Positions 4,391-35,045 of a DNA stretch of 64,000 nucleotides are shown piece by piece. The position numbers were made by a program, and so were the translations under genes. The stretch's first letter is position 1. Each line of letters opens with the position of its first letter. The notes beneath the pieces were generated by a model. It was not told the DNA's origin. It saw only the letters and a list, made by a program, of their open reading frames with translations, and did not search any database. Source of the DNA: Minisyncoccota bacterium (GTDB lineage: Bacteria > Patescibacteriota > Minisyncoccia > 2-02-FULL-40-12 > GWA2-44-9); NCBI GenBank assembly GCA_030583765.1, contig CP129474.1, positions 521,348 through 585,347 on the forward strand. Direction: 5' to 3'.

Positions 4391-5650
4391 ATGGATCGTA
4401 TTCTGACCGCACTGAAGCGTCCGGAGCTCCGGAGCAAGATACTCTTTATTCTGGGTATCCTTGCATTGTCGCGCGTCCTCTCAACGATCCCTGTGCCTGC
4501 AATCGACGGCAGTCAGTTGAAGGAATTTTTTGCAAACAACCAATTCTTTGGTCTTATTAGCGCGTTCACGGGTGGTGGCCTCTCCAATCTTTCCATTGCC
4601 ATGATCGGCTTGGGTGCATACATCACCGCGTCGATCATTATGCAGTTGATGACTATGATCTTTCCTTCGATGGAGCAGTTGTACAAACATGAAGGAGAGG
4701 CGGGTCGCGCAAAGTTCAATCAATATTCCCGCATGCTTGCAGTGCCACTCGGCGCTATCCAGGCATACGGATTTCTAACGCTCTTGGTGCGTCAGAGTGT
4801 TATCCCTGCGATGTCCGGGTTCGAATGGTTTAATGCCATCACTGTTGTGGTTGCGGGAAGTATGCTTCTTATGTGGCTTGGTGAGCTGATGACCGAAAAG
4901 AATCTCGGCAACGGTGTCTCGCTCTTGATTCTTGCGGGTATCGCTGCGAGCATTCCCACAACGCTCCGACAGGCAATTTTTACCTACACACCCGATCAAC
5001 TCGTCACCTACATTGTCTTTGCAGTAATCTCGCTGGTTGTTATCGCCGGGGTCGTCTTTATCTCAGAGGCGCAGCGTAATATTCCAGTAACCTACGCGCG
5101 TCGCGTGCGCGGTTCCCGTGTATTCGGTGGGGTTTCCACGTATCTTCCTATGCGTGTGAATAACGCTGGTGTTATCCCGATTATCTTCGCACTCTCAATT
5201 CTTCTCTTCCCGGGCACGATCGCCACCTTCTTTGCGGGCTCGAGCATTACATTCCTTGCGAACGCGGCGCAATTCGTGCAGAACATTCTTGCGAGCAACC
5301 TGTGGTACAGCATATTCTACTTTGTGCTCGTGGTGCTCTTCACCTTCTTCTACACGGCAGTGACGTTTGATCCGAAGTCTATCTCTGAAAACATCCAGAA
5401 GCAGGGCGGCTACATTCCCGGCTTGCGTCCAGGTCCTATGACCGCGCAATTCCTCTCGTATCTGGTAAACCGCATCACGTTGGTCGGCGCACTCTTCCTT
5501 GGCGCAGTTGCTGTGCTCCCTAATGTGGTACAGGGCTTCACCGGCTTGACCGCCTTCTCCATTGGTGGAACAACTGTACTTATCGTGGTGTCAGTTGCGC
5601 TTGAGCTCATGAAACAGCTCGACGCTCAAGTCAGCATGTACGAATACTAG
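4391..5650 (+). CDS. secY: Preprotein translocase subunit SecY
   Basis: ATG at 4391 is in frame with the 4313 ORF. The protein is multi-TM, has SecY motifs and sits after L15. Confidence 0.9.
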   Translation: MDRILTALKRPELRSKILFILGILALSRVLSTIPVPAIDGSQLKEFFANNQFFGLISAFTGGGLSNLSIAMIGLGAYITASIIMQLMTMIFPSMEQLYKHEGEAGRAKFNQYSRMLAVPLGAIQAYGFLTLLVRQSVIPAMSGFEWFNAITVVVAGSMLLMWLGELMTEKNLGNGVSLLILAGIAASIPTTLRQAIFTYTPDQLVTYIVFAVISLVVIAGVVFISEAQRNIPVTYARRVRGSRVFGGVSTYLPMRVNNAGVIPIIFALSILLFPGTIATFFAGSSITFLANAAQFVQNILASNLWYSIFYFVLVVLFTFFYTAVTFDPKSISENIQKQGGYIPGLRPGPMTAQFLSYLVNRITLVGALFLGAVAVLPNVVQGFTGLTAFSIGGTTVLIVVSVALELMKQLDAQVSMYEY

Positions 5651-5697
5651 TAAAAACGAAGTAGAAAATTTCTCCCAAGGGCGCCCAAGCGGCGCTC

Positions 5698-5726
5698 TTG
5701 ACTTTTACATAAATAAACTGGATAAT
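5698..5726 (+). promoter_or_regulatory. Cassette 1 promoter: TTGACT-17bp-GATAAT
   Basis: -35 is TTGACT at 5698-5703. The spacer is 17 nt. -10 is GATAAT at 5721-5726. The RBS GAGGAGGTGGGC ends 1 nt before ATG 5750. Confidence 0.6.
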
Positions 5727-5749
5727 GTATGCACCACGAGGAGGTGGGC

Positions 5750-6151
5750 ATGGAGAGCTTTTTCACTGACATGGGCGAGGGCGATCGCGTGGTCGCGCAC
5801 GTCGGGATGCACTCGATCGACATGAGCCCCGAAGGGCGACCGGATGTGGCCTTGTCGTTGCCGATCAACGACATCGGGTACGGGGAGAGCGCTGATGTGT
5901 TGGAGGAGTATATCCTCGCCATCAACGCTGCGCTGAAGCTGGCTCATCGTCGGCTTCGTCTCGAAAGGGTTTTCGACCACCATGGCGAAGAGGTCGTGTT
6001 CGAGGGCGAGGTTTCTTTCGAGGGGCTGGTCGAAGAGGAGGGTCGTCGGGAAGAGGAGAACCCGGAAGATCCTCTGTACGCGAAGAGATTCGTTTTCATC
6101 TTCGAGGCGCTCCCCAACCCGACGTTGCGGGATCGCCACATGATGCCCTAG
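5750..6151 (+). CDS. Hypothetical acidic protein (cassette 1); GC-rich foreign-looking ORF inserted between secY and adk
   Basis: 133 aa. The start is set by the strong RBS: MESFFTDMGEGDRV... The codons are G/C3-saturated, unlike the flanking ribosomal genes. No motif was recognised. Confidence 0.6.
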   Translation: MESFFTDMGEGDRVVAHVGMHSIDMSPEGRPDVALSLPINDIGYGESADVLEEYILAINAALKLAHRRLRLERVFDHHGEEVVFEGEVSFEGLVEEEGRREEENPEDPLYAKRFVFIFEALPNPTLRDRHMMP

Positions 6152-7734: not shown

Positions 7735-8328
7735 ATGGCCACGATGATGCAGGTCGGTCTGGCGGAGTTCGGCGCGAACGTCCGCCCCATCGCGGAGCGC
7801 ACCTTTCGGTGCCTCGTGCACAAGCGCGAGGTGACGTCTCGGGACGGTTTCGTCCTGAGCATCGGCAACATCCAGAAGGAGCTCGGACTGCCGGCGAAGC
7901 AGCTGCCGGCGATTCACCAGCTCAGCGGGTTCGTCGCCTGCTACGAGTGTCTCCCGAGTGTGAGGTCCTTCTACGGGGTGTCGTTCATGCCCCGCCTCGG
8001 GGACCAGCTCGCGCTGCTCGATCGGCACTTCAAGCTGGCGGCCCAGCAGGTGAGGGCGCGGCCGATCGCTCCGGCGACGGTCGTGCAGGGCACGACGACG
8101 GGGCGCACGGGGACGGCCATGCCCACGCTCCCTGCCGGCTACTTCGAGCGCCGGGGCCAGGCCCACAAGGGCCGGAAGTCCCGGGCCCAGAGGCGCGCGG
8201 AGGCGATGGCCAAGCGCGCGCGGCCGGCGGCCACCGCGGCCGTCGACAAGAAGGCCGCGAAGAAGGCCGCCAAGCAGGCGGCCAAGGCCAAGAACCAGAA
8301 GGGCAACGGTGGCAAGAAGCGCCACTAG
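7735..8328 (+). CDS. Hypothetical protein with histone H1/AlgP-like KAAK-repeat basic tail (cassette 2), likely nucleic-acid binding
   Basis: 197 aa. The N-terminal domain is about 110 aa. The tail reads ...KRARPAATAAVDKKAAKKAAKQAAKAKNQKGNGGKKRH. The sequence is very GC-rich. Overlapping alternative-frame ORFs are GC artefacts. Confidence 0.6.
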   Translation: MATMMQVGLAEFGANVRPIAERTFRCLVHKREVTSRDGFVLSIGNIQKELGLPAKQLPAIHQLSGFVACYECLPSVRSFYGVSFMPRLGDQLALLDRHFKLAAQQVRARPIAPATVVQGTTTGRTGTAMPTLPAGYFERRGQAHKGRKSRAQRRAEAMAKRARPAATAAVDKKAAKKAAKQAAKAKNQKGNGGKKRH

Positions 8329-26983: not shown

Positions 26984-27003
26984 ATGCGTCCAAGGAGGTG
27001 GCA

Positions 27004-27315
27004 GTGAATCAGAAAAAGCGAGCGACCGCGTCGCTAGCGGAGCTCGTTGCCGAAGTATCAGGGTGGCGGTTTGTGGTGGGGATGGCGGCCGTCATCGGGA
27101 GCCTCTTCATCTTCGTCTGTATGTTCCGAGCGGGCGTTGCGTGGGAACAAGGGCGTCTCGTTGCCGCAGTTGCTCTTGCGGCAGCTTCACTGGTTGCCGT
27201 CATCCTGTTTCTCGTGATCCTCACCATCGCTACGCGCAACTTGCGGGGCGACGTGCGGGAGTTTGCGAGACGCATGGGTGCTGGCATGGGCGATGACGCT
27301 GGGCTTAAGATCTAG
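27004..27315 (+). CDS. Small 2-TM membrane protein (cassette 3, gene a)
   Basis: 103 aa with two hydrophobic helices (VVGMAAVIGSLFIFV..., LVAAVALAAASLVAVILFLVIL). It is GC-rich and starts at a GTG placed by the RBS. Confidence 0.55.
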   Translation: MNQKKRATASLAELVAEVSGWRFVVGMAAVIGSLFIFVCMFRAGVAWEQGRLVAAVALAAASLVAVILFLVILTIATRNLRGDVREFARRMGAGMGDDAGLKI

Positions 27316-27330
27316 TGGGGGGGGTGAATC

Positions 27331-27936
27331 GTGAAGGTTCTCGTCGTTGCCGGGTACGGGGTGACGCCCGTACGAAACTACGCCATGGAGACAGAGCGCT
27401 ATCTGCTCCGTGCCGCAGAGTTGCTCAGGGAGGCATACGAGGGCGGCGATCCGTTCTCCAATCTCATCCTGTGCGGCGGCATGACCCAGCAGAAGACATC
27501 GCCACATGTCACAGAGGCGTACGCGATGCACGAACGTCTTCGCACGTTGACCATGTGGACTGATGGGAAGCTCGTACCCTCCTTCTGGGACGCTGTGCTG
27601 GTCTCGCACGAAGAGCGTTCATTCACTTCGCTGGAGAACGTACGAAACGCGAGTGAGCGCATTTATCAGCTGTGGGAGCAATTCGATGAGGAGCTCCACA
27701 TCACCGTGCTGTGCGAAGGCATGCGCCTCCTGAAGTGGCAGATCTTGTGTCGCCACTTCATGCCGAAGACGACCACGCCCATCCAGTACGAGATCGTCAA
27801 CTGGGAGCTGATGTCACCCCACAAGGAGTTGATGGCGACCATCTGGGACGCGTGTTCGGTCTCGATTCCCATTATCGGGCCAGCGATGGCGTGGTGGTGG
27901 GGATGGCGTCGCCGTCGGCGCGCCAAGCACATCTAG
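27331..27936 (+). CDS. DUF218 (YdcF/SanA/ElyC)-like protein with W/R-rich C-terminal tail (cassette 3, gene b)
   Basis: 201 aa. VLVVAGYG...R...LILCGGMTQQKTSPHVTEAYAMHERL resembles the DUF218 GG/SEA core. The tail reads AMAWWWGWRRRRRAKHI. Start is GTG. Confidence 0.55.
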   Translation: MKVLVVAGYGVTPVRNYAMETERYLLRAAELLREAYEGGDPFSNLILCGGMTQQKTSPHVTEAYAMHERLRTLTMWTDGKLVPSFWDAVLVSHEERSFTSLENVRNASERIYQLWEQFDEELHITVLCEGMRLLKWQILCRHFMPKTTTPIQYEIVNWELMSPHKELMATIWDACSVSIPIIGPAMAWWWGWRRRRRAKHI

Positions 27937-29060: not shown

Positions 29061-29106
29061 TCGAGAATCCTAGCAAAAAAGCCCTTTGTGGGCCAGATGG
29101 CGCATA

Positions 29107-29135
29107 TTGACTTTATCGCTTTAAACTGGTATAAT
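29107..29135 (+). promoter_or_regulatory. Cassette 4 promoter: TTGACT-17bp-TGGTATAAT (extended -10) plus about 100-nt structured leader
   Basis: -35 at 29107-12 and -10 at 29130-35. The leader has hairpins CCATCCTCTAGGAGGGGATGG and TCGGCTAACAGCCGA before RBS GGAGAGAAGCA and ATG 29242. Confidence 0.55.
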
Positions 29136-29241
29136 TATAGAGTACAGTGTAGTACCTTTACATGCAGAACTGCCGCATTTCGCGGCCCATCCTCTAGGAG
29201 GGGATGGAAGAATCTCGGCTAACAGCCGAAGGAGAGAAGCA

Positions 29242-29835
29242 ATGAAGTATGACGAGATGACGTGGGGCACGATGGAGGCCGTGGTCAACAAGCTTGGCGG
29301 CATGGATGGCGTTCAGCGCTTCCTGCGCGGCGCGCTCAAGGTCGTCGAGGCGGAGGCCAATGCCGCCTTCTCGACGTTCCAGAAGATCACGCTCAGCGTG
29401 TACGACAACGTCGCGACGCTTCGCAAGGCGATCGCGGACAGCGGCAACAACATCAGCGACTACGGGGAAGACCTGCTCGCCAAGATGTCGCTGGTGAAGG
29501 AGCCCGTCGAGCTCGAGCTGGTGTGCGTGTCGGTCAAGGATCTGGGCCTGAAGTCCGGAGCCACGATCAAGCAGATCTACGATCGCGCTCGCAAGCTTGG
29601 CTTGGACCTCTGCCCGGCCCAGGTCGGACCCGAGCTCCGCCTGGCCTACCAGGATCAGCCCATCGGCGAGTGGCTGCTGGTGGCGATGGAGCAGATCACG
29701 GATCGCAACGGTCACCCGAGCGTGTTCATCGTCGGGTGTGACGTCCACGGCGTCCGCTGGTTGGACGGCGATTACGCCTACCCGAGCAACACCTGGAGCG
29801 GCCTCAGCCGTTGGGTGTTCGTCCGTCGCGCGTAA
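29242..29835 (+). CDS. Hypothetical protein (cassette 4)
   Basis: 197 aa beginning MKYDEMTWGTMEAVVNKLGG... It is GC-rich with G/C3 codons. No motif was recognised. Confidence 0.55.
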   Translation: MKYDEMTWGTMEAVVNKLGGMDGVQRFLRGALKVVEAEANAAFSTFQKITLSVYDNVATLRKAIADSGNNISDYGEDLLAKMSLVKEPVELELVCVSVKDLGLKSGATIKQIYDRARKLGLDLCPAQVGPELRLAYQDQPIGEWLLVAMEQITDRNGHPSVFIVGCDVHGVRWLDGDYAYPSNTWSGLSRWVFVRRA

Positions 29836-29886: not shown

Positions 29887-29920
29887 GCCCGCACAGAAAT
29901 GTGCGGGCTCTTTATTTTTA
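29887..29920 (+). terminator. Intrinsic terminator of cassette 4
   Basis: GCCCGCAC-AGAAAT-GTGCGGGC followed by TCTTTATTTTTA. The terminal TTA is the stop codon (complement) of the convergent nucleotidyltransferase gene. Confidence 0.6.
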
Positions 29921-30610
29921 TAATTTGGTGTCCGCTATTTTCTCCACGGCTCGCAGATCTTCTGGAGTGTTTACACTGCGCCATGATGGCATAGCCACCA
30001 CGTGCACGGGGTTATGCGCGCTCCATACCAAGAGGGTGCGCGGGAGACTCAACTCACCAGAGGGAAGATGGTACGGTTCTTCTGAAAAAATACTTGGCTC
30101 TAACATATATGCTCCCGTTGCAATGCAGTGCGTGCCCTCCTGTGGTGTCGGGCCAAACGCGGTAAGGAGGCTGTGTGCGTCCTGTGCGATATTGAGGAAC
30201 GGTGGCACTGGGCGTGGCGATTCCCATACACCTATAGCTCGAGTGTGTTGGGAGAGGGTGAGTATATCATGTGATGCAAACATGTCGTCAGACTGGAGGA
30301 CAAGGAATGGTTGCGTAGACGTTGCGCATAGCGATTGCGCACTCCAGAGCGCCCCAGCCGTTCCGGGGAGTGCATCTTCTTGCATGATAAAACGGATTGG
30401 TGCGTGGGGGTGCTCCCGCATGACGTGCTCTCTGATTTGCTCGTGGCGATATTTTACTACAATACCAATCTGGTTAACGGCAGGTGGGAGTGCGCGCAGC
30501 AGATGATCCAAGAGCGTTGTGCCACGAACTGTAATGAGTGGCTTTGGTATGGTGTCGGTGAGCGGCGCAAGGCGTGTGCCGCGTCCAGCGGCGAGTATGA
30601 TGGCGAGCAT
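29918..30610 (-). CDS. Sugar-phosphate nucleotidyltransferase-like protein (NTP_transferase/MobA-like fold)
   Basis: The real start MLAIILAAGRGTRLAPLTDTIPKPL... (G-x-G-x-R nucleotide-binding loop) lies inside a longer ORF. Composition is native-like. Confidence 0.65.
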   Translation of the reverse strand: MLAIILAAGRGTRLAPLTDTIPKPLITVRGTTLLDHLLRALPPAVNQIGIVVKYRHEQIREHVMREHPHAPIRFIMQEDALPGTAGALWSAQSLCATSTQPFLVLQSDDMFASHDILTLSQHTRAIGVWESPRPVPPFLNIAQDAHSLLTAFGPTPQEGTHCIATGAYMLEPSIFSEEPYHLPSGELSLPRTLLVWSAHNPVHVVAMPSWRSVNTPEDLRAVEKIADTKL

Positions 30611-30620
30611 ATTCGTAGTG

Positions 30621-30654
30621 TATAAAAAGTAAGGGGGCTTGTACAAAGCCCCCT
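30621..30654 (-). terminator. Intrinsic terminator of cassette 5 (minus strand)
   Basis: On the minus strand, GGGGGCTTTGTACAAGCCCCC followed by TTACTTTTTATA lies downstream of the NUDIX stop. Confidence 0.55.
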
Positions 30655-30662
30655 CTCGAGCG

Positions 30663-31181
30663 CTAGAGCTCGTACGGCGGTGCGGCAGGCGGCTCGGCGG
30701 GGAAAACGCTCTGCGGGTACGGCCTTTGCGGCCGGATGTAGGGCTCCCAGATGAGCGTTCTCTGCGCGCGATAGACGTGTTCCCACACGCCTTCGAGTTC
30801 CGGTGCCGTGAACCAGCGCACATCGCTGATCTCGTCCGTGGGAAGCTGGGCATGCACCGGAGATGTTTCGGAGAACTGTTGACGGGGGAACTCCCACATG
30901 AGGACGATCCCCGGCGATTTGGCGAGCGTGAAGGCGTGTGGGCACCACATGGAGGGGGCGGTCAACCAGTATCCAGTCTCCTCCCTCAATTCGCGTGCCA
31001 GTGCATCCCAGAGCCGCTCTCCGATCATGGGCGCTCCGCCAGGGAGTGACCACTGTCGAGAAGGGTATCCCGGCACCTCGTAGTTGTGCTGAACGAGGAG
31101 GATTTTCGGCTCCTTCCCTGGTGTGCGGTTGACGATGTGGGCGAAGACGCCCACCTGCGTAATGTCTCGTTTATCTCTCAC
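30663..31181 (-). CDS. NUDIX hydrolase (cassette 5, minus strand)
   Basis: 172 aa with Nudix box GGAPMIGERLWDALARELREETG. It is GC-rich with G/C3 codons. The GTG start follows RBS AAGGAGGT. Confidence 0.8.
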   Translation of the reverse strand: MRDKRDITQVGVFAHIVNRTPGKEPKILLVQHNYEVPGYPSRQWSLPGGAPMIGERLWDALARELREETGYWLTAPSMWCPHAFTLAKSPGIVLMWEFPRQQFSETSPVHAQLPTDEISDVRWFTAPELEGVWEHVYRAQRTLIWEPYIRPQRPYPQSVFPAEPPAAPPYEL

Positions 31182-31204
31182 TCAAACCTCCTTGTGAGTT
31201 TCTG

Positions 31205-31233
31205 ATAATACAATTACTTGCGCTAACTGTCAA
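31205..31233 (-). promoter_or_regulatory. Cassette 5 promoter (minus strand): TTGACA-17bp-TATTAT
   Basis: The reverse complement of 31228-33 is TTGACA, overlapping the trpS stop. The reverse complement of 31205-10 is TATTAT. RBS AAGGAGGT is the reverse complement of 31186-93. Confidence 0.55.
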
Positions 31234-32249
31234 AGCCCCATGGCGGTGCGCACTTTACGCATCGTTTCTTCTGCAATGACTCGGGCTTTTTCTTCGGATG
31301 CTTCCAATATAGCCGTTACCTGTGCGGGATCTGCGGTGAGTTCGGCGTGCTTTTGCTGAAATGGCGCAAGTGCCGTGATGATCGCCTCTGCGAGATCGTG
31401 TTTGAAATCCGCGTAGCCACTGGACGCATAGCGAGCTTCGAGCTCTGGGATCGGTGTGCCGCTCACAACACTGAAAATAGTGAGTAAGTTAGCGATGGCT
31501 GGCCGTTCGGTGGGTTGGTAGGTAATGCCGGTGCCTGAATCAGTGACGGCACGCTTTATCTTTGCGCGAATGGTGTCTGGTGCGTCAGTGAGGGCAATGC
31601 CATCGTCGCCCGTCTTTGACATCTTTTTCGTAGGATCTTGCAGAGACATGATGCGAGCGCCCTGCTCTTCTGCCATGTGCGCTTTTACGGTGGTAAATGT
31701 TTCGCCACCTGCCCGGCCAGGGAATAAATGGTTGAACTTACGTGCTATTTCATTGGTGACATCAATGTGCACGAGCTGATCTTCGCCCACTGGAACGAGG
31801 GTTGTGTTGTAAAGCAGAATGTCTGCCGCCATGAGTACGGGATAGGAAAGAATGGCGAGGTTGTTGCCATAGCTTCCTGCGCGAGGAGAAAGTGATGCTT
31901 CGATCTGCTCACCCTTCTCTCGGTAGTTGGGGAGGCGGTCTAGCCAACTGATGGGCGTAATGGAAGATAAGAGCCACATGAGCTCGGCATGCTGGGGAAC
32001 GCGAGACTGGCGGATGATAAGCGCACGCGAAGGATCTACGCCCGCGGCAATGTAGTTAATGGCCGCATCGCGCACGCGCTCTGGCATGTCGGCTGGTTCG
32101 TAGGGCGTAGTGATGCCGTGAAGGTCTACGACGGCGTACACTGCTTGTTCTGCGTCGCGCTGAAGGGCAACCCACTGTTTGAGTGCGCCCACATAGTTGC
32201 CAAGATGGAGCTTGCCACTGGGGCGCATGCCAGAAAAAACTCGTTGCAT
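31230..32249 (-). CDS. trpS: Tryptophan--tRNA ligase
   Basis: 339 aa with a HIGH-type region (..GKLHLGNYVGAL..) and KMSKT. Confidence 0.9.
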   Translation of the reverse strand: MQRVFSGMRPSGKLHLGNYVGALKQWVALQRDAEQAVYAVVDLHGITTPYEPADMPERVRDAAINYIAAGVDPSRALIIRQSRVPQHAELMWLLSSITPISWLDRLPNYREKGEQIEASLSPRAGSYGNNLAILSYPVLMAADILLYNTTLVPVGEDQLVHIDVTNEIARKFNHLFPGRAGGETFTTVKAHMAEEQGARIMSLQDPTKKMSKTGDDGIALTDAPDTIRAKIKRAVTDSGTGITYQPTERPAIANLLTIFSVVSGTPIPELEARYASSGYADFKHDLAEAIITALAPFQQKHAELTADPAQVTAILEASEEKARVIAEETMRKVRTAMGL

Positions 32250-32348: not shown

Positions 32349-32786
32349 ATGAGATCTTGTTTGACATTGGCACACGAGCCGTACGAGCCCTTGCGCATCG
32401 CGCGCGACGAGCTCGTCGTCGTTTCGGAAACGGATCCGGGGAGCATCCCCGCGTTCGTGGATCGGTTTCGGGACGTTTCTGCTCCGATTCCGATCGAGTG
32501 CGTGGACCACCTTCGCAAGCTGGTGACAGCGATCATCCAGAAGATGGAGTTCGCGTCTGCGAACGGGTGGCCGTCACGTAGGCCGATGTACTTCCATGTC
32601 TGTCGCCTGAACGACCTGTCAGCGAAGGAGTGCGAGCTCTGGGAGGACGCCGCGCAGCTCATCTACAAGGAGTTGCACGCTTGCGGCTGGACGCAGGCCA
32701 TCGTGGACGAGGTGGAGTGGCAGAACGTGGAGGACGAGGGGACGGAGCGTTACGAGCGCTCGCTCGTCATCAACCTGTTCATGTAG
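32349..32786 (+). CDS. Hypothetical protein (cassette 6)
   Basis: 146 aa beginning MRSCLTLAHEPYEPLRIARDELVVV... It is GC-rich. The RBS-placed ATG is in frame inside the 31989 ORF. No motif was recognised. Confidence 0.55.
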   Translation: MRSCLTLAHEPYEPLRIARDELVVVSETDPGSIPAFVDRFRDVSAPIPIECVDHLRKLVTAIIQKMEFASANGWPSRRPMYFHVCRLNDLSAKECELWEDAAQLIYKELHACGWTQAIVDEVEWQNVEDEGTERYERSLVINLFM

Positions 32787-32791
32787 CAAAC

Positions 32792-32830
32792 GCCCGAGGG
32801 GGTATCCCTCGGGCGTGCTTTCTTTTTATA
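32792..32830 (+). terminator. Intrinsic terminator of cassette 6
   Basis: CGCCCGAGGGGGTATCCCTCGGGCG followed by TGCTTTCTTTTTATA. The RNase J stop codon (complement of 32826-28) is in the T tract. Confidence 0.6.
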
Positions 32831-34907
32831 CTTCGATAATGACTGGCAAGACCATGGGCCGCCGTTCTGTTTTTTGGAACAAGAATCGTCCCACATCGTC
32901 ACGAATATTATCTTTCAGGTACTGCAAGTTCATGGGGCGCTGACGCTCGGATTCGATGATGGTGCGCACCTTTTTACGTACTTGCGAGAGAAGTTCACGT
33001 TGTTCTTTGAGGTACACGAAGCCGCGGGAGATAATATCTGGGCTACGGTTGATTTGTCCGGTGCGAGCATCAATGAGCGTGATGATGACAAACATGCCAT
33101 CTTCTGCGAGCACTTGGCGGTCGCGCAACACAACATTGCCGATGTCGCCGATACCCAAGCCGTCTACCATGACGTAGTGTGCGGGGTGAGTCTTTTTATC
33201 AAACCACCACTGATCTGGGGCGTAGTGCACAATTTGTCCATTATCCGCGATAATGACGTTGCCGTCGGGGATGCCGAGCGACTTACCTAATTCACCGAGG
33301 GTGACCATCATGGAGTATTGACCATGGTGTGGCATGAGGAACTTTGGTCGCACGAGCTGGATGATCTTTTTGAGATCTTCTTGTTTTGCGTGACCACCTG
33401 CATGGATGTCCATCATCTGGTTGTGGTACACCTTTACGCCAGCGCGGTAGAGCATGTCTTTGAGGTACTGAATGGCGCGCTCGTTACCCGGAATGACCGA
33501 CGAGGAGAACACCACGCTATCATGAGGCTTCAGTTGAATGAAGCGGTGCTCTTGGTTCACGATGCGCATGAGCGATGCAGATTCTTGACCTTGTGCGCCA
33601 GTGGCGATCACCGTGATGAGCTCGCGAGGGTAGTCATCAATTTGTTCCATCGAGATTTGCGTGCCCTTTCCGATCTTGATATAGCCCATTTCTTTCGCAA
33701 TATCGACGTTGGATTTCAAGCTGTAGCCGTCGAATGCTACTTTGCGGCCATAGTGTTCAGAGAGGGTGATGAGCTGCTGGATGCGATTGATCATCGAGGA
33801 GAACGTTCCTACAAGGATCATACCCTTTGCCTCCCTGAAGATAATGTCCATGTTCTCATAGATGGTGCTTTCCGAGACGGAGTGCCCCTCTTCTTCTGCA
33901 TCTGTTGAGTCGCACATCATCATGAGGACGCCCTTGTCGCCGAAGCGCTGGAGCTTGTCATAGTCTGCAGGCTCGCCGTTCAATGGCGCTGGATCGAATT
34001 TGAAGTCTGCAGTGTGGATGACATTTCCTACTGGCGTCGTGATGAACAATCCCAAGTCGTCGGGAATGTTGTGGTTCATGTTGAAGAATTCAACTGTGAA
34101 ATATTCCCCAACTTTTTCAACGTCGCCGTTCTTCATGACGTTGATGTTCAGCGGCGCGAGGTGTGGGAACTCAAGGTGCCGCTTCATAAGGATTTTTTCC
34201 GTCAGCTGTGCAGTATAAATTTCTGGGTTTCCGAGCTTTTCTTGGAGATAGGGCACTGCACCAATGTGATCCATGTGTCCGTGCGTAAGAATAAGCGCGC
34301 GGATATTTTCCTTTTTCGTTTCCAAATACGCCGTGTTAGGGATGATGAAGTCGATGCCCGGCATGTTTTCTTGCGGGAACATGATGCCTGCATCGATGAC
34401 GATGATCTCATCCTTGTATTCCATGCAGTACATGTTTTTCCCAACCTCGCCCAAGCCTCCGAGCGCGTATACTTTCAACGTATTGTCGGCGTTTGGATCT
34501 GTGCCTTCGGGTGCGCCAACCTTGCCCGCATGAATCTGGGTGGGTGGAAGGCGTCGCTCGCTGGCGAGCTTTGGACGACGTGCACCGTAGCGTGCGCGGC
34601 TGCGACTCGCGGCGCGGCGCGGTTTGTCATATGAAGTTTCTGCAGGTTGGGCGCTGGTAGTTTCGCCTGATGTCGGCGCGCTTGGCGCATCCGTTCGTTG
34701 TTGTGGGCGATGCTGAAAGCCGCCACCAGAGCGGGGGCGATGGAAACGCCGTCGGCCAAATCCGCCGCGTCGTTGCTGTTGAGGCACGTCTCCTGATGCT
34801 GGTGCATCGGAAGAAGGTGCGCGTGTATCTGAATCGGTCACACAGAAAGAAGAGCGTAGGGCGCAACGTGCATGCAACAGCGTTGCCGTGCACGAGCGCA
34901 CGCTCAT
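32826..34907 (-). CDS. rnj: Ribonuclease J (metallo-beta-lactamase/beta-CASP) with RG-rich N-terminal extension
   Basis: HGHMDHIGAVPYL motif and beta-CASP/RMMBL regions. The first about 130 aa form a low-complexity R/G/S-rich region. The true start is uncertain. Confidence 0.85.
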   Translation of the reverse strand: MSVRSCTATLLHARCALRSSFCVTDSDTRAPSSDAPASGDVPQQQRRGGFGRRRFHRPRSGGGFQHRPQQRTDAPSAPTSGETTSAQPAETSYDKPRRAASRSRARYGARRPKLASERRLPPTQIHAGKVGAPEGTDPNADNTLKVYALGGLGEVGKNMYCMEYKDEIIVIDAGIMFPQENMPGIDFIIPNTAYLETKKENIRALILTHGHMDHIGAVPYLQEKLGNPEIYTAQLTEKILMKRHLEFPHLAPLNINVMKNGDVEKVGEYFTVEFFNMNHNIPDDLGLFITTPVGNVIHTADFKFDPAPLNGEPADYDKLQRFGDKGVLMMMCDSTDAEEEGHSVSESTIYENMDIIFREAKGMILVGTFSSMINRIQQLITLSEHYGRKVAFDGYSLKSNVDIAKEMGYIKIGKGTQISMEQIDDYPRELITVIATGAQGQESASLMRIVNQEHRFIQLKPHDSVVFSSSVIPGNERAIQYLKDMLYRAGVKVYHNQMMDIHAGGHAKQEDLKKIIQLVRPKFLMPHHGQYSMMVTLGELGKSLGIPDGNVIIADNGQIVHYAPDQWWFDKKTHPAHYVMVDGLGIGDIGNVVLRDRQVLAEDGMFVIITLIDARTGQINRSPDIISRGFVYLKEQRELLSQVRKKVRTIIESERQRPMNLQYLKDNIRDDVGRFLFQKTERRPMVLPVIIEV

Positions 34908-34958: not shown

Positions 34959-35045
34959 TGGTGCCCTCGACAGGACTTGAACCTGTACGATCGTGAGATC
35001 ACTAGCTCCTGAAGCTAGCGCGTCTGCCAATTCCGCCACGAGGGC
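34959..35045 (-). tRNA. tRNA-Leu (anticodon CAG)
   Basis: The reverse complement is GCCCTCGTGGCGGAATTGGCAGACGCGCTAGCTTCAGGAGCTAG...CAGGTTCAAGTCCTGTCGAGGGCACCA. It has a long variable arm. The loop TTCAGGA gives anticodon CAG. CCA is encoded. Confidence 0.85.

Follow-up and report, generated by a model that had tools for sequence, protein, structure and literature searches.

A Probably Native Nudix Hydrolase Gene Paired With a Sugar-1-Phosphate Nucleotidylyltransferase Gene at a Conserved trpS Locus in Patescibacteria

Introduction

In its gene context, the system closest to the locus described here is that of the E. coli Nudix enzyme Gmm (NudD), with which NDP-sugar pyrophosphatases such as NudK are grouped. 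The Nudix box of Gmm is a modified one, and the enzyme cleaves at sugar C1. Its gene is part of the colanic-acid operon, where it lies beside genes for a nucleotidylyltransferase (cpsB/manC), which forms GDP-mannose, and a phosphomannomutase (cpsG/manB); the hydrolysis by gmm resembles a futile cycle, and a regulatory role for it cannot be ruled out (PMC5158307). The locus in this study has the same kind of context, a Nudix gene beside nucleotidylyltransferase and phosphomannomutase genes, but the Nudix box of its product is canonical, and the Gmm model (NF011963) was not matched by the protein studied here and was matched weakly (E=7e-4) by only one of its 10 orthologues.

Other described Nudix proteins are more similar in the protein itself. 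The best profile matches were the uncharacterized MutT/Nudix proteins PDB 3id9 and 3smd of Bacillus and 1sjy (DR1025) of Deinococcus (1.6e-13, 3.5e-12, and 4.2e-11, respectively), which have the same canonical box, size (~150 aa), single domain and WSLPGG sequence. Identity to these proteins is ~20-25%, however, and the subfamily described below differs from them in having an additional Y-x-A-Q motif (residues 137-140), a C-terminal PP (residues 164-165) and a fixed NTP_transferase partner. RppH and BsRppH (YtkD) are alike in fold and size, there are weak matches to their models, and an RNase J gene is found in the same block; the scores are far under the family cut-offs, however, and the conserved neighbors are sugar-nucleotide genes. 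Our search for literature on Nudix proteins in Patescibacteria, or on Nudix genes clustered with sugar nucleotidyltransferase genes, found nothing relevant.

The gene was identified in a 64-kb stretch of DNA (the whole of which is referred to here as the window) from a groundwater Patescibacteria/CPR bacterium, whose nearest relatives are from Hainich groundwater assemblies. A first-pass annotation of the window had presented it as a stand-alone cassette, which would be horizontally acquired and self-contained, and, if the cassettes are one system, as the most plausible enzymatic component of what might be a defense or counter-defense system degrading nucleotide-derived signals.

Results and Discussion

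The Nudix gene, its product and its neighbors

The Nudix gene (30663..31181, minus strand) has a GTG start and a TAG stop codon and encodes a protein of 172 aa, with a Nudix box at residues 49-71 and a Pro-rich C-terminal tail. The box (G49-APMIG-E55-RLWDALA-R63E64-L-R-E67E68-T-G70-Y71) matches the motif GX5EX7REUXEEXGU, and no other Nudix box occurs in the window. The protein matches the Pfam NUDIX family (PF00293) with 53.2 bits (E=4.1e-14; gathering threshold 21.1), and its AF2 model (mean pLDDT 71; 84-95 in the core, with low confidence for residues 80-111 and 155-172) aligned in Foldseek with many Nudix structures at a probability of 1.0 and a TM of about 0.55-0.7, identifying the alpha/beta/alpha Nudix fold. 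By its box, Pfam score and fold the product belongs to the Nudix hydrolase superfamily, as the first-pass annotation had it, and NCBI names it "MAG: NUDIX hydrolase [Candidatus Paceibacterota bacterium]." An identical protein with the same flanking genes is encoded on five independent metagenome contigs; that the identical locus is found in these assemblies, as well as in the NCBI MAG, rules out that the sequence is synthetic or planted.

The gene immediately upstream is trpS, encoding tryptophanyl-tRNA synthetase (31230..32249, minus strand), and that downstream (29918..30610, minus strand) encodes a 230-aa sugar-1-phosphate nucleotidylyltransferase. The latter protein matches Pfam NTP_transferase and, among NCBIfam models, the N-terminal domain of Arch_glmU (7.9e-30) as well as AglF and MurU, all of which are sugar-1-P nucleotidylyltransferases. 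Both genes are conserved neighbors of the Nudix gene. Beyond the transferase are ychF, rpsF, ssb, and rpsR. In the upstream direction, trpS and another gene separate the Nudix gene from that of RNase J (32826-34907, minus strand), just upstream of which there is a tRNA gene (34962-35045, minus strand; Rfam RF00005, 56 bits). The RNase J N-terminus (34570-34907) is a GC-rich, Arg/Gly/Pro-rich, RGG-like extension of ~112 aa, which is alignable within the window clade alone; for most distant relatives the alignment begins only around residue 113.

Conservation of the locus in relatives

At least 13 further distinct contigs, named as Yanofskybacteria, Paceibacterota or Parcubacteria, have an orthologous Nudix gene at the same locus. 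The commonest order in these relatives is trpS, PMM/PGM (on the opposite strand), Nudix, NTP_transferase and ychF. The PMM or PGM/PMM gene is divergently upstream of the Nudix gene in 10 lineages and absent from the block in the window clade. A Nudix gene followed by NTP_transferase was found, by metagenome scan and look-ups, in L054, L062/63, L064, L068/69, L070, L076, L086/88, L122, L123, and L125. In L054, whose Nudix homolog (P0003) is 35% identical to the window protein and shares its extra motifs, the order is trpS, PMM (opposite strand), Nudix, NTP_transferase, six more genes and then ychF, and in L070 the order is that of the window (trpS, Nudix, transferase, ychF). The Nudix stop overlaps the transferase start in both of these genomes, by 7 nt in L054 and 11 nt in L070, so that the pair is translationally coupled there. 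TrpS is 52-58% identical to that of the window in the distant orthologue-bearing lineages measured. The one interruption of the pair that we observed is in L124, where an insert of 1.7 kb (4447-6137) containing a 221-aa ORF and a GIY-YIG-domain gene lies between the Nudix and NTP_transferase genes.

Every lineage with the partner transferase has the Nudix gene at the same site, and the five relatives with no Nudix gene between trpS and ychF (L008, L009, L011, L012, and L052) are also missing the transferase there. From the orthologous locus and the 7-11 nt overlaps we conclude that the Nudix and transferase genes are one conserved pair, and not two genes between which an insertion has come, as had been supposed when the Nudix gene was described as splitting trpS from a native nucleotidyltransferase gene. 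The first-pass annotation had itself named an orthologous Nudix gene with host codon usage at the trpS locus of relatives as the finding that would speak against it, and such genes are what distant relatives have: their Nudix GC3, where measured, is 0.37-0.52, on par with the 0.37-0.47 of the flanking genes.

Two species-level relatives, L006 and L007, in which TrpS is 94 and 91% identical to that of the window, respectively, keep the order trpS, Nudix, NTP_transferase. The Nudix protein is far less similar, with identities of 62% (L007) and 38% (L006) by codon alignment and 58 and 36% by tblastn, although its catalytic residues are intact in all three species. Synonymous divergence (dS) among the three is about 0.9-1.4 for RNase J and TrpS (dN/dS 0.03-0.05), 0.6-1.4 for NTP_transferase (dN/dS 0.11-0.13), and 1.1-1.7 for Nudix, with 3.2 for the L006-L007 comparison (dN/dS 0.21-0.41 by NG86). 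With dS at saturation in the Nudix gene and its flanks alike, and of similar size in both, the Nudix gene was already present before the three species diverged, and its low identity in L006 and L007 is not evidence for recent insertion because synonymous sites are saturated in every gene. A recent insertion is thereby ruled out, the Nudix gene being at the same site in both relatives with dS already saturated. The dN/dS values of 0.21-0.41 indicate purifying selection, so that the Nudix gene of the window clade is relaxed or weakly constrained yet under purifying selection; these NG86 values, from three saturated sequences, contain no gene-wide signal of positive selection.

A mobile origin was also considered and rejected. 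We found no repeats shared by the proposed cassettes beyond promoter and Shine-Dalgarno motifs, and no mobile-element boundaries. An integron-like or other mobile gene cassette is ruled out, as there is no recombination site, boundary repeat, integrase or variable presence among close relatives. No horizontal-transfer donor could be named either, since the nearest homolog outside the clade is just 35% identical and the NJ tree has no donor clade. The idea of a stand-alone foreign cassette thus does not survive the conservation of the gene in place and the lack of boundary repeats. We consider it highly probable (about 0.85) that this is a native, conserved Nudix gene paired with NTP_transferase and not a mobile or defense cassette; it would be a resident, vertically inherited gene of a Paceibacteria/Yanofskybacteria-like Patescibacteria genome. 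Its removal from the proposed multi-cassette system, as a resident gene with conserved synteny, leaves it with little significance beyond correct annotation.

Promoter, Shine-Dalgarno sequence and terminator

The Nudix gene was said to have its own promoter, Shine-Dalgarno sequence and terminator, and all three were located, each at the position described for it. A sigma-70-type promoter (TTGACA-17-TATTAT; 31205..31233, minus strand) agrees with the consensus at 11 of 12 positions and is the only match to TTGACA-N16-18-TATWAT in 64 kb, against 0.03 expected. Its -35 TTGACA spans the TGA stop codon of trpS (31232-31230). The Shine-Dalgarno sequence AAGGAGGT (31186..31193, minus strand) is 4 nt 5' of the GTG start codon, and octamers of this sequence occur five times in the window, against 1.2 expected. 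In the gap between the Nudix and NTP_transferase genes there is a hairpin followed by a T-run (30622..30655, minus strand), consistent with an intrinsic terminator or attenuator: a stem of 10 bp (30655..30631) precedes ACTTTTTATA, with a dG of -17.9 kcal/mol (z = -2.8 vs. shuffles). The T-run ends 11 nt from the transferase ATG (30610) and so abuts the next gene. No terminator was found at the trpS-Nudix junction, and a search for known RNA elements near the Nudix gene gave just one below-threshold chance match.

Much of this arrangement is conserved in the close relatives. L007 keeps the promoter (TTGACA/TAATAT), Shine-Dalgarno sequence and GTG start, its terminator stem is identical, and the first 17 Nudix codons are conserved with one substitution. 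L006 keeps the Shine-Dalgarno sequence and GTG, with a weaker promoter in the same place (TTGTAG/TATAGT) and a hairpin of different sequence. The AAGGAGG within the Shine-Dalgarno sequence is conserved in both.

The 52-nt gap between the two genes contains no recognizable promoter-like or evident Shine-Dalgarno site for the transferase, which argues for attenuation of transcription by the hairpin over full termination. Hairpins with unrelated stem sequences are also found in the Nudix-transferase gap in L006, L064, L076, and L086, and the two genes overlap in L054 and L070. The recurrence of a hairpin of differing sequence suggests a selected attenuator inside an operon, and the outcome of such attenuation would be a Nudix protein made in excess over the transferase.

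A lineage-restricted Nudix subfamily

A profile search of 5.8 billion proteins found about 55 clusters scoring >110 bits, all of them single-domain proteins of 121-191 aa, and wherever these were named the name was Yanofskybacteria, Paceibacterota or Parcubacteria. Just beneath these clusters are proteins of 260-270 aa with another architecture. In an alignment of 10 orthologues, E55, R63, E64, and E68 are invariant, and the catalytic RE-x2-EE is present in all orthologues. Outside the Nudix box the invariant residues are L28, W44-S-L-P-G-G49, E117-I118, Y137-x-A139-Q140, and P164-P165, so that the subfamily is marked by LLVxHxY, (Q/K)WSLPGG, EI, Y-x-A-Q and the C-terminal PP motif. No Nudix-NTP_transferase fusion of the Rosetta-stone type was found among the 120 best homologs. 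By these sequence features, the window protein is a member of an uncharacterized Nudix subfamily that appears restricted to this lineage of Patescibacteria.

In the NJ tree the window clade is monophyletic, long-branched and sister to the remaining subfamily, and its Nudix proteins have a clade-specific insertion of five residues. The Nudix protein outpaces TrpS throughout the family, with a 1.2-2.8-fold amino-acid difference, and the difference is largest in the window clade (4-10-fold).

Possible substrates and role

With RE-x2-EE retained, the protein is predicted to be an Mg2+-dependent Nudix diphosphatase that cleaves a nucleoside-diphosphate-X. Judged from gene context, X would most likely be a sugar-1-phosphate. 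Sequence motifs, NCBIfam, PDB profile and fold searches do not discriminate between substrates, so that gene context is the sole discriminating evidence. Neither the window protein nor the 10 orthologues reached the cut-off of any NCBIfam equivalog examined (MutT, NudI, RppH, YtkD, NudC, NudE, and Gmm); the window protein scored best with PRK08999 (24 bits; cut-off 245), NudI (22 bits; cut-off 95), and RppH (16.7 bits; cut-off 116). The PDB profile and Foldseek matches are a flat list of MutT, NudI, DR1025, Dcp2, RppH, and Ap4A hydrolases. Of the checks that had been proposed, the structure comparison supported the Nudix fold, but neither it nor the analysis of motifs after the box separated the substrate classes. 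Our best guess, from gene context alone, is a nucleotide-sugar or NTP diphosphatase.

More specifically, we tentatively propose that the Nudix protein hydrolyses an NDP-sugar, either the product of the adjacent nucleotidylyltransferase or a scavenged one, to NMP and sugar-1-P, an activity that would tune or salvage the nucleotide-sugar pool. The occurrence in Yanofskybacteria/Paceibacteria alone of a Nudix protein with a fixed nucleotidylyltransferase partner, and usually PMM, makes for a concrete hypothesis on nucleotide-sugar handling in CPR bacteria. Against it, the PDB and Foldseek matches are mostly to (d)NTP, RNA-cap and ApnA enzymes and not to NDP-sugar enzymes, and an enzyme that hydrolysed what its neighbor makes would drive a futile cycle, an objection that has also been raised for gmm (PMC5158307). 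Adjacency alone is, in addition, weak evidence for functional coupling because the whole trpS-ychF-rpsF region is syntenic across genomes.

That synteny, which holds irrespective of function, is equally what would be expected if the protein were a house-cleaning pyrophosphatase of the MutT/NudI type acting on damaged or non-canonical (d)NTPs, with its place beside the transferase inherited without a functional link. The best sequence and profile matches (MutT/Nudix family proteins, NudI, DR1025, and MutT2) are in keeping with such a role, as is the small, single-domain form typical of NTP-type Nudix enzymes. We nevertheless regard it as unlikely: apart from the low NudI score, the MutT model (NF008044, cut-off 148 bits) had no match to the window protein at E<=0.01 and gave only 17 bits in L006, identities of 36-62%, where TrpS has 91-94%, are lower than one would expect for an essential antimutator, and in two lineages the Nudix gene overlaps that of the transferase.

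The presence of RNase J in the same block raises the prospect of an RppH-like RNA 5'-pyrophosphohydrolase, converting 5'-triphosphate to 5'-monophosphate RNA and so licensing its decay by the nearby nuclease. Seven of the 10 orthologues match the RppH and YtkD models (E down to about 2e-9), and the best PDB and Foldseek matches include BdRppH and Dcp2. These scores are no better than those with MutT and DR1025 models, however, that of the window protein is well short of the RppH cut-off, two genes intervene between those of RNase J and Nudix, and the immediate conserved partners are PMM and the transferase and not RNase J. We judge this function improbable.

There are also weak matches to the Nudix domain of NadM-Nudix, to NrtR and to ADPRase structures, as might be found for a pyrophosphatase of ADP-ribose, NAD(H) or another dinucleotide in general metabolism. 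A Pro 16 residues after the Nudix box reportedly marks the ADP-ribose pyrophosphatase subfamily, but the window protein has Leu/Ala at positions 86/87, 16 residues past its box, and its nearest Pro residues are P81 and P90. It also has neither the SQPWPFPxS array of NADH diphosphatases nor the N-terminal dimerization domain typical for ADPRases, and no NAD genes are near its gene, all of which makes this role quite doubtful.

It is more speculative, and in our view very unlikely, that the protein serves an episymbiotic CPR bacterium in conflict, for example as an effector or by hydrolysing a nucleotide signal that comes from a host or phage, or, in a milder form of the idea, that PMM, Nudix and transferase are a CPR-specific nucleotide-sugar salvage module. 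Were the enzyme conflict-facing, an arms race, or repeated allele replacement from GC-rich relatives, would account for its low identity in the close relatives (36-62%, vs. 91-94% for TrpS), raised GC3, five-residue insertion and Pro-rich tail.

The defense or counter-defense cassette of the first-pass annotation can draw on the gene's own strong promoter, terminator and raised GC3, its fast evolution within the window clade, a weak PADLOC match to PDC-S07 (E=2.2e-5, 22 bits) and the occurrence of Nudix enzymes in NAD/ADPR conflict systems (PMC9503650), yet we consider it extremely improbable, given the orthologues throughout the family that occupy this locus with the codon usage of their hosts, other "cassettes" that are absent from relatives or independent of Nudix in them, the absence of shared boundary repeats, integrase or attC-like sites, and dN/dS values <1. 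In PADLOC-DB, PDC-S07 is a candidate model whose match was to the generic Nudix core, and seven neighboring ORFs had no match; a scan of viral contigs gave just three generic partial Nudix matches (34-36% identity over ~80 residues). Neither membership of a defense family nor a viral link was thus found.

GC3 and the other high-GC3 genes

With a GC3 of 0.75, the Nudix gene lies ~3.8 robust SD above the median of the window (0.53; MAD 0.04). It is a true outlier, although the term used in the first-pass annotation, "saturated," overstates what is a raised value. The elevation is confined to the window clade, in which the three Nudix genes have values of 0.75, 0.65, and 0.64 vs. 0.52-0.57 for their flanks.

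Other high-GC3 ORFs in the window are at 5729-6151, 7735-8328, 26998-27315, 27331-27936, and 32349-32786 (GC3 0.68-0.94 vs. the median of 0.53), and most of them have strong promoter-, Shine-Dalgarno- and terminator-like signals. Pfam gave no matches to these ORFs, except for a below-threshold DUF218 match at 27331-27936, and this DUF218-like gene is kept in place in distant relatives. Where relatives exist, the high-GC3 ORFs diverge fast, with identities of 53-74% vs. 86-96% for most housekeeping neighbors. Most relatives have the Nudix gene without orf197 or orf145 genes, and the variation of the other high-GC3 genes independently of Nudix speaks against the proposal that the cassettes are one system with the Nudix protein as its enzyme.

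The raised GC3 and strong private promoters and terminators of the fast genes of the window clade might be explained by codon equilibria specific to each gene, or GC-rich relatives may have supplied alleles that replaced the original ones. A candidate event of the second kind is replacement of the Nudix gene of the window clade, whose branch is long, by a gene of the same subfamily from a GC-rich relative. The GC3 of core genes (trpS and RNase J) is 0.8-0.9 in L008 and L013 and ~0.4 in other relatives in the family, and variation in GC as broad as this within one Patescibacteria group is relevant to where the high-GC3 genes of the window came from. In this genome, raised GC3 and strong private signals are common to the genes that are fast and lineage-specific, a pattern that merits an explanation at the level of the genome, not gene by gene.

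A diversity-generating retroelement near ychF

Several relatives have a diversity-generating retroelement (DGR) between NTP_transferase and ychF (L057, 11257-13959; L006, 12295-13167; L007, 12325-13197; L011, 13442-14548). The L057 element has an RT and an Avd-like gene, together with a TR/VR pair of 127 nt and 87% identity located in the 269-aa target gene beside ychF. DGR-driven hypervariation of the Nudix gene is ruled out, as the DGR of relatives targets another gene (that of the 269-aa protein in L057) and no RT was found in the 64-kb window. At the DGR site the window (29097-29835) has orf197 (29242-29835; GC3 0.89), which has no family matches; in the L007 species a DGR stands in its place. 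The promoter and leader of orf197 are conserved with L057, and the presence of orf197 in one genome and a DGR in the other behind the same promoter and leader indicates an exchange of genes downstream of a promoter that has itself been conserved.
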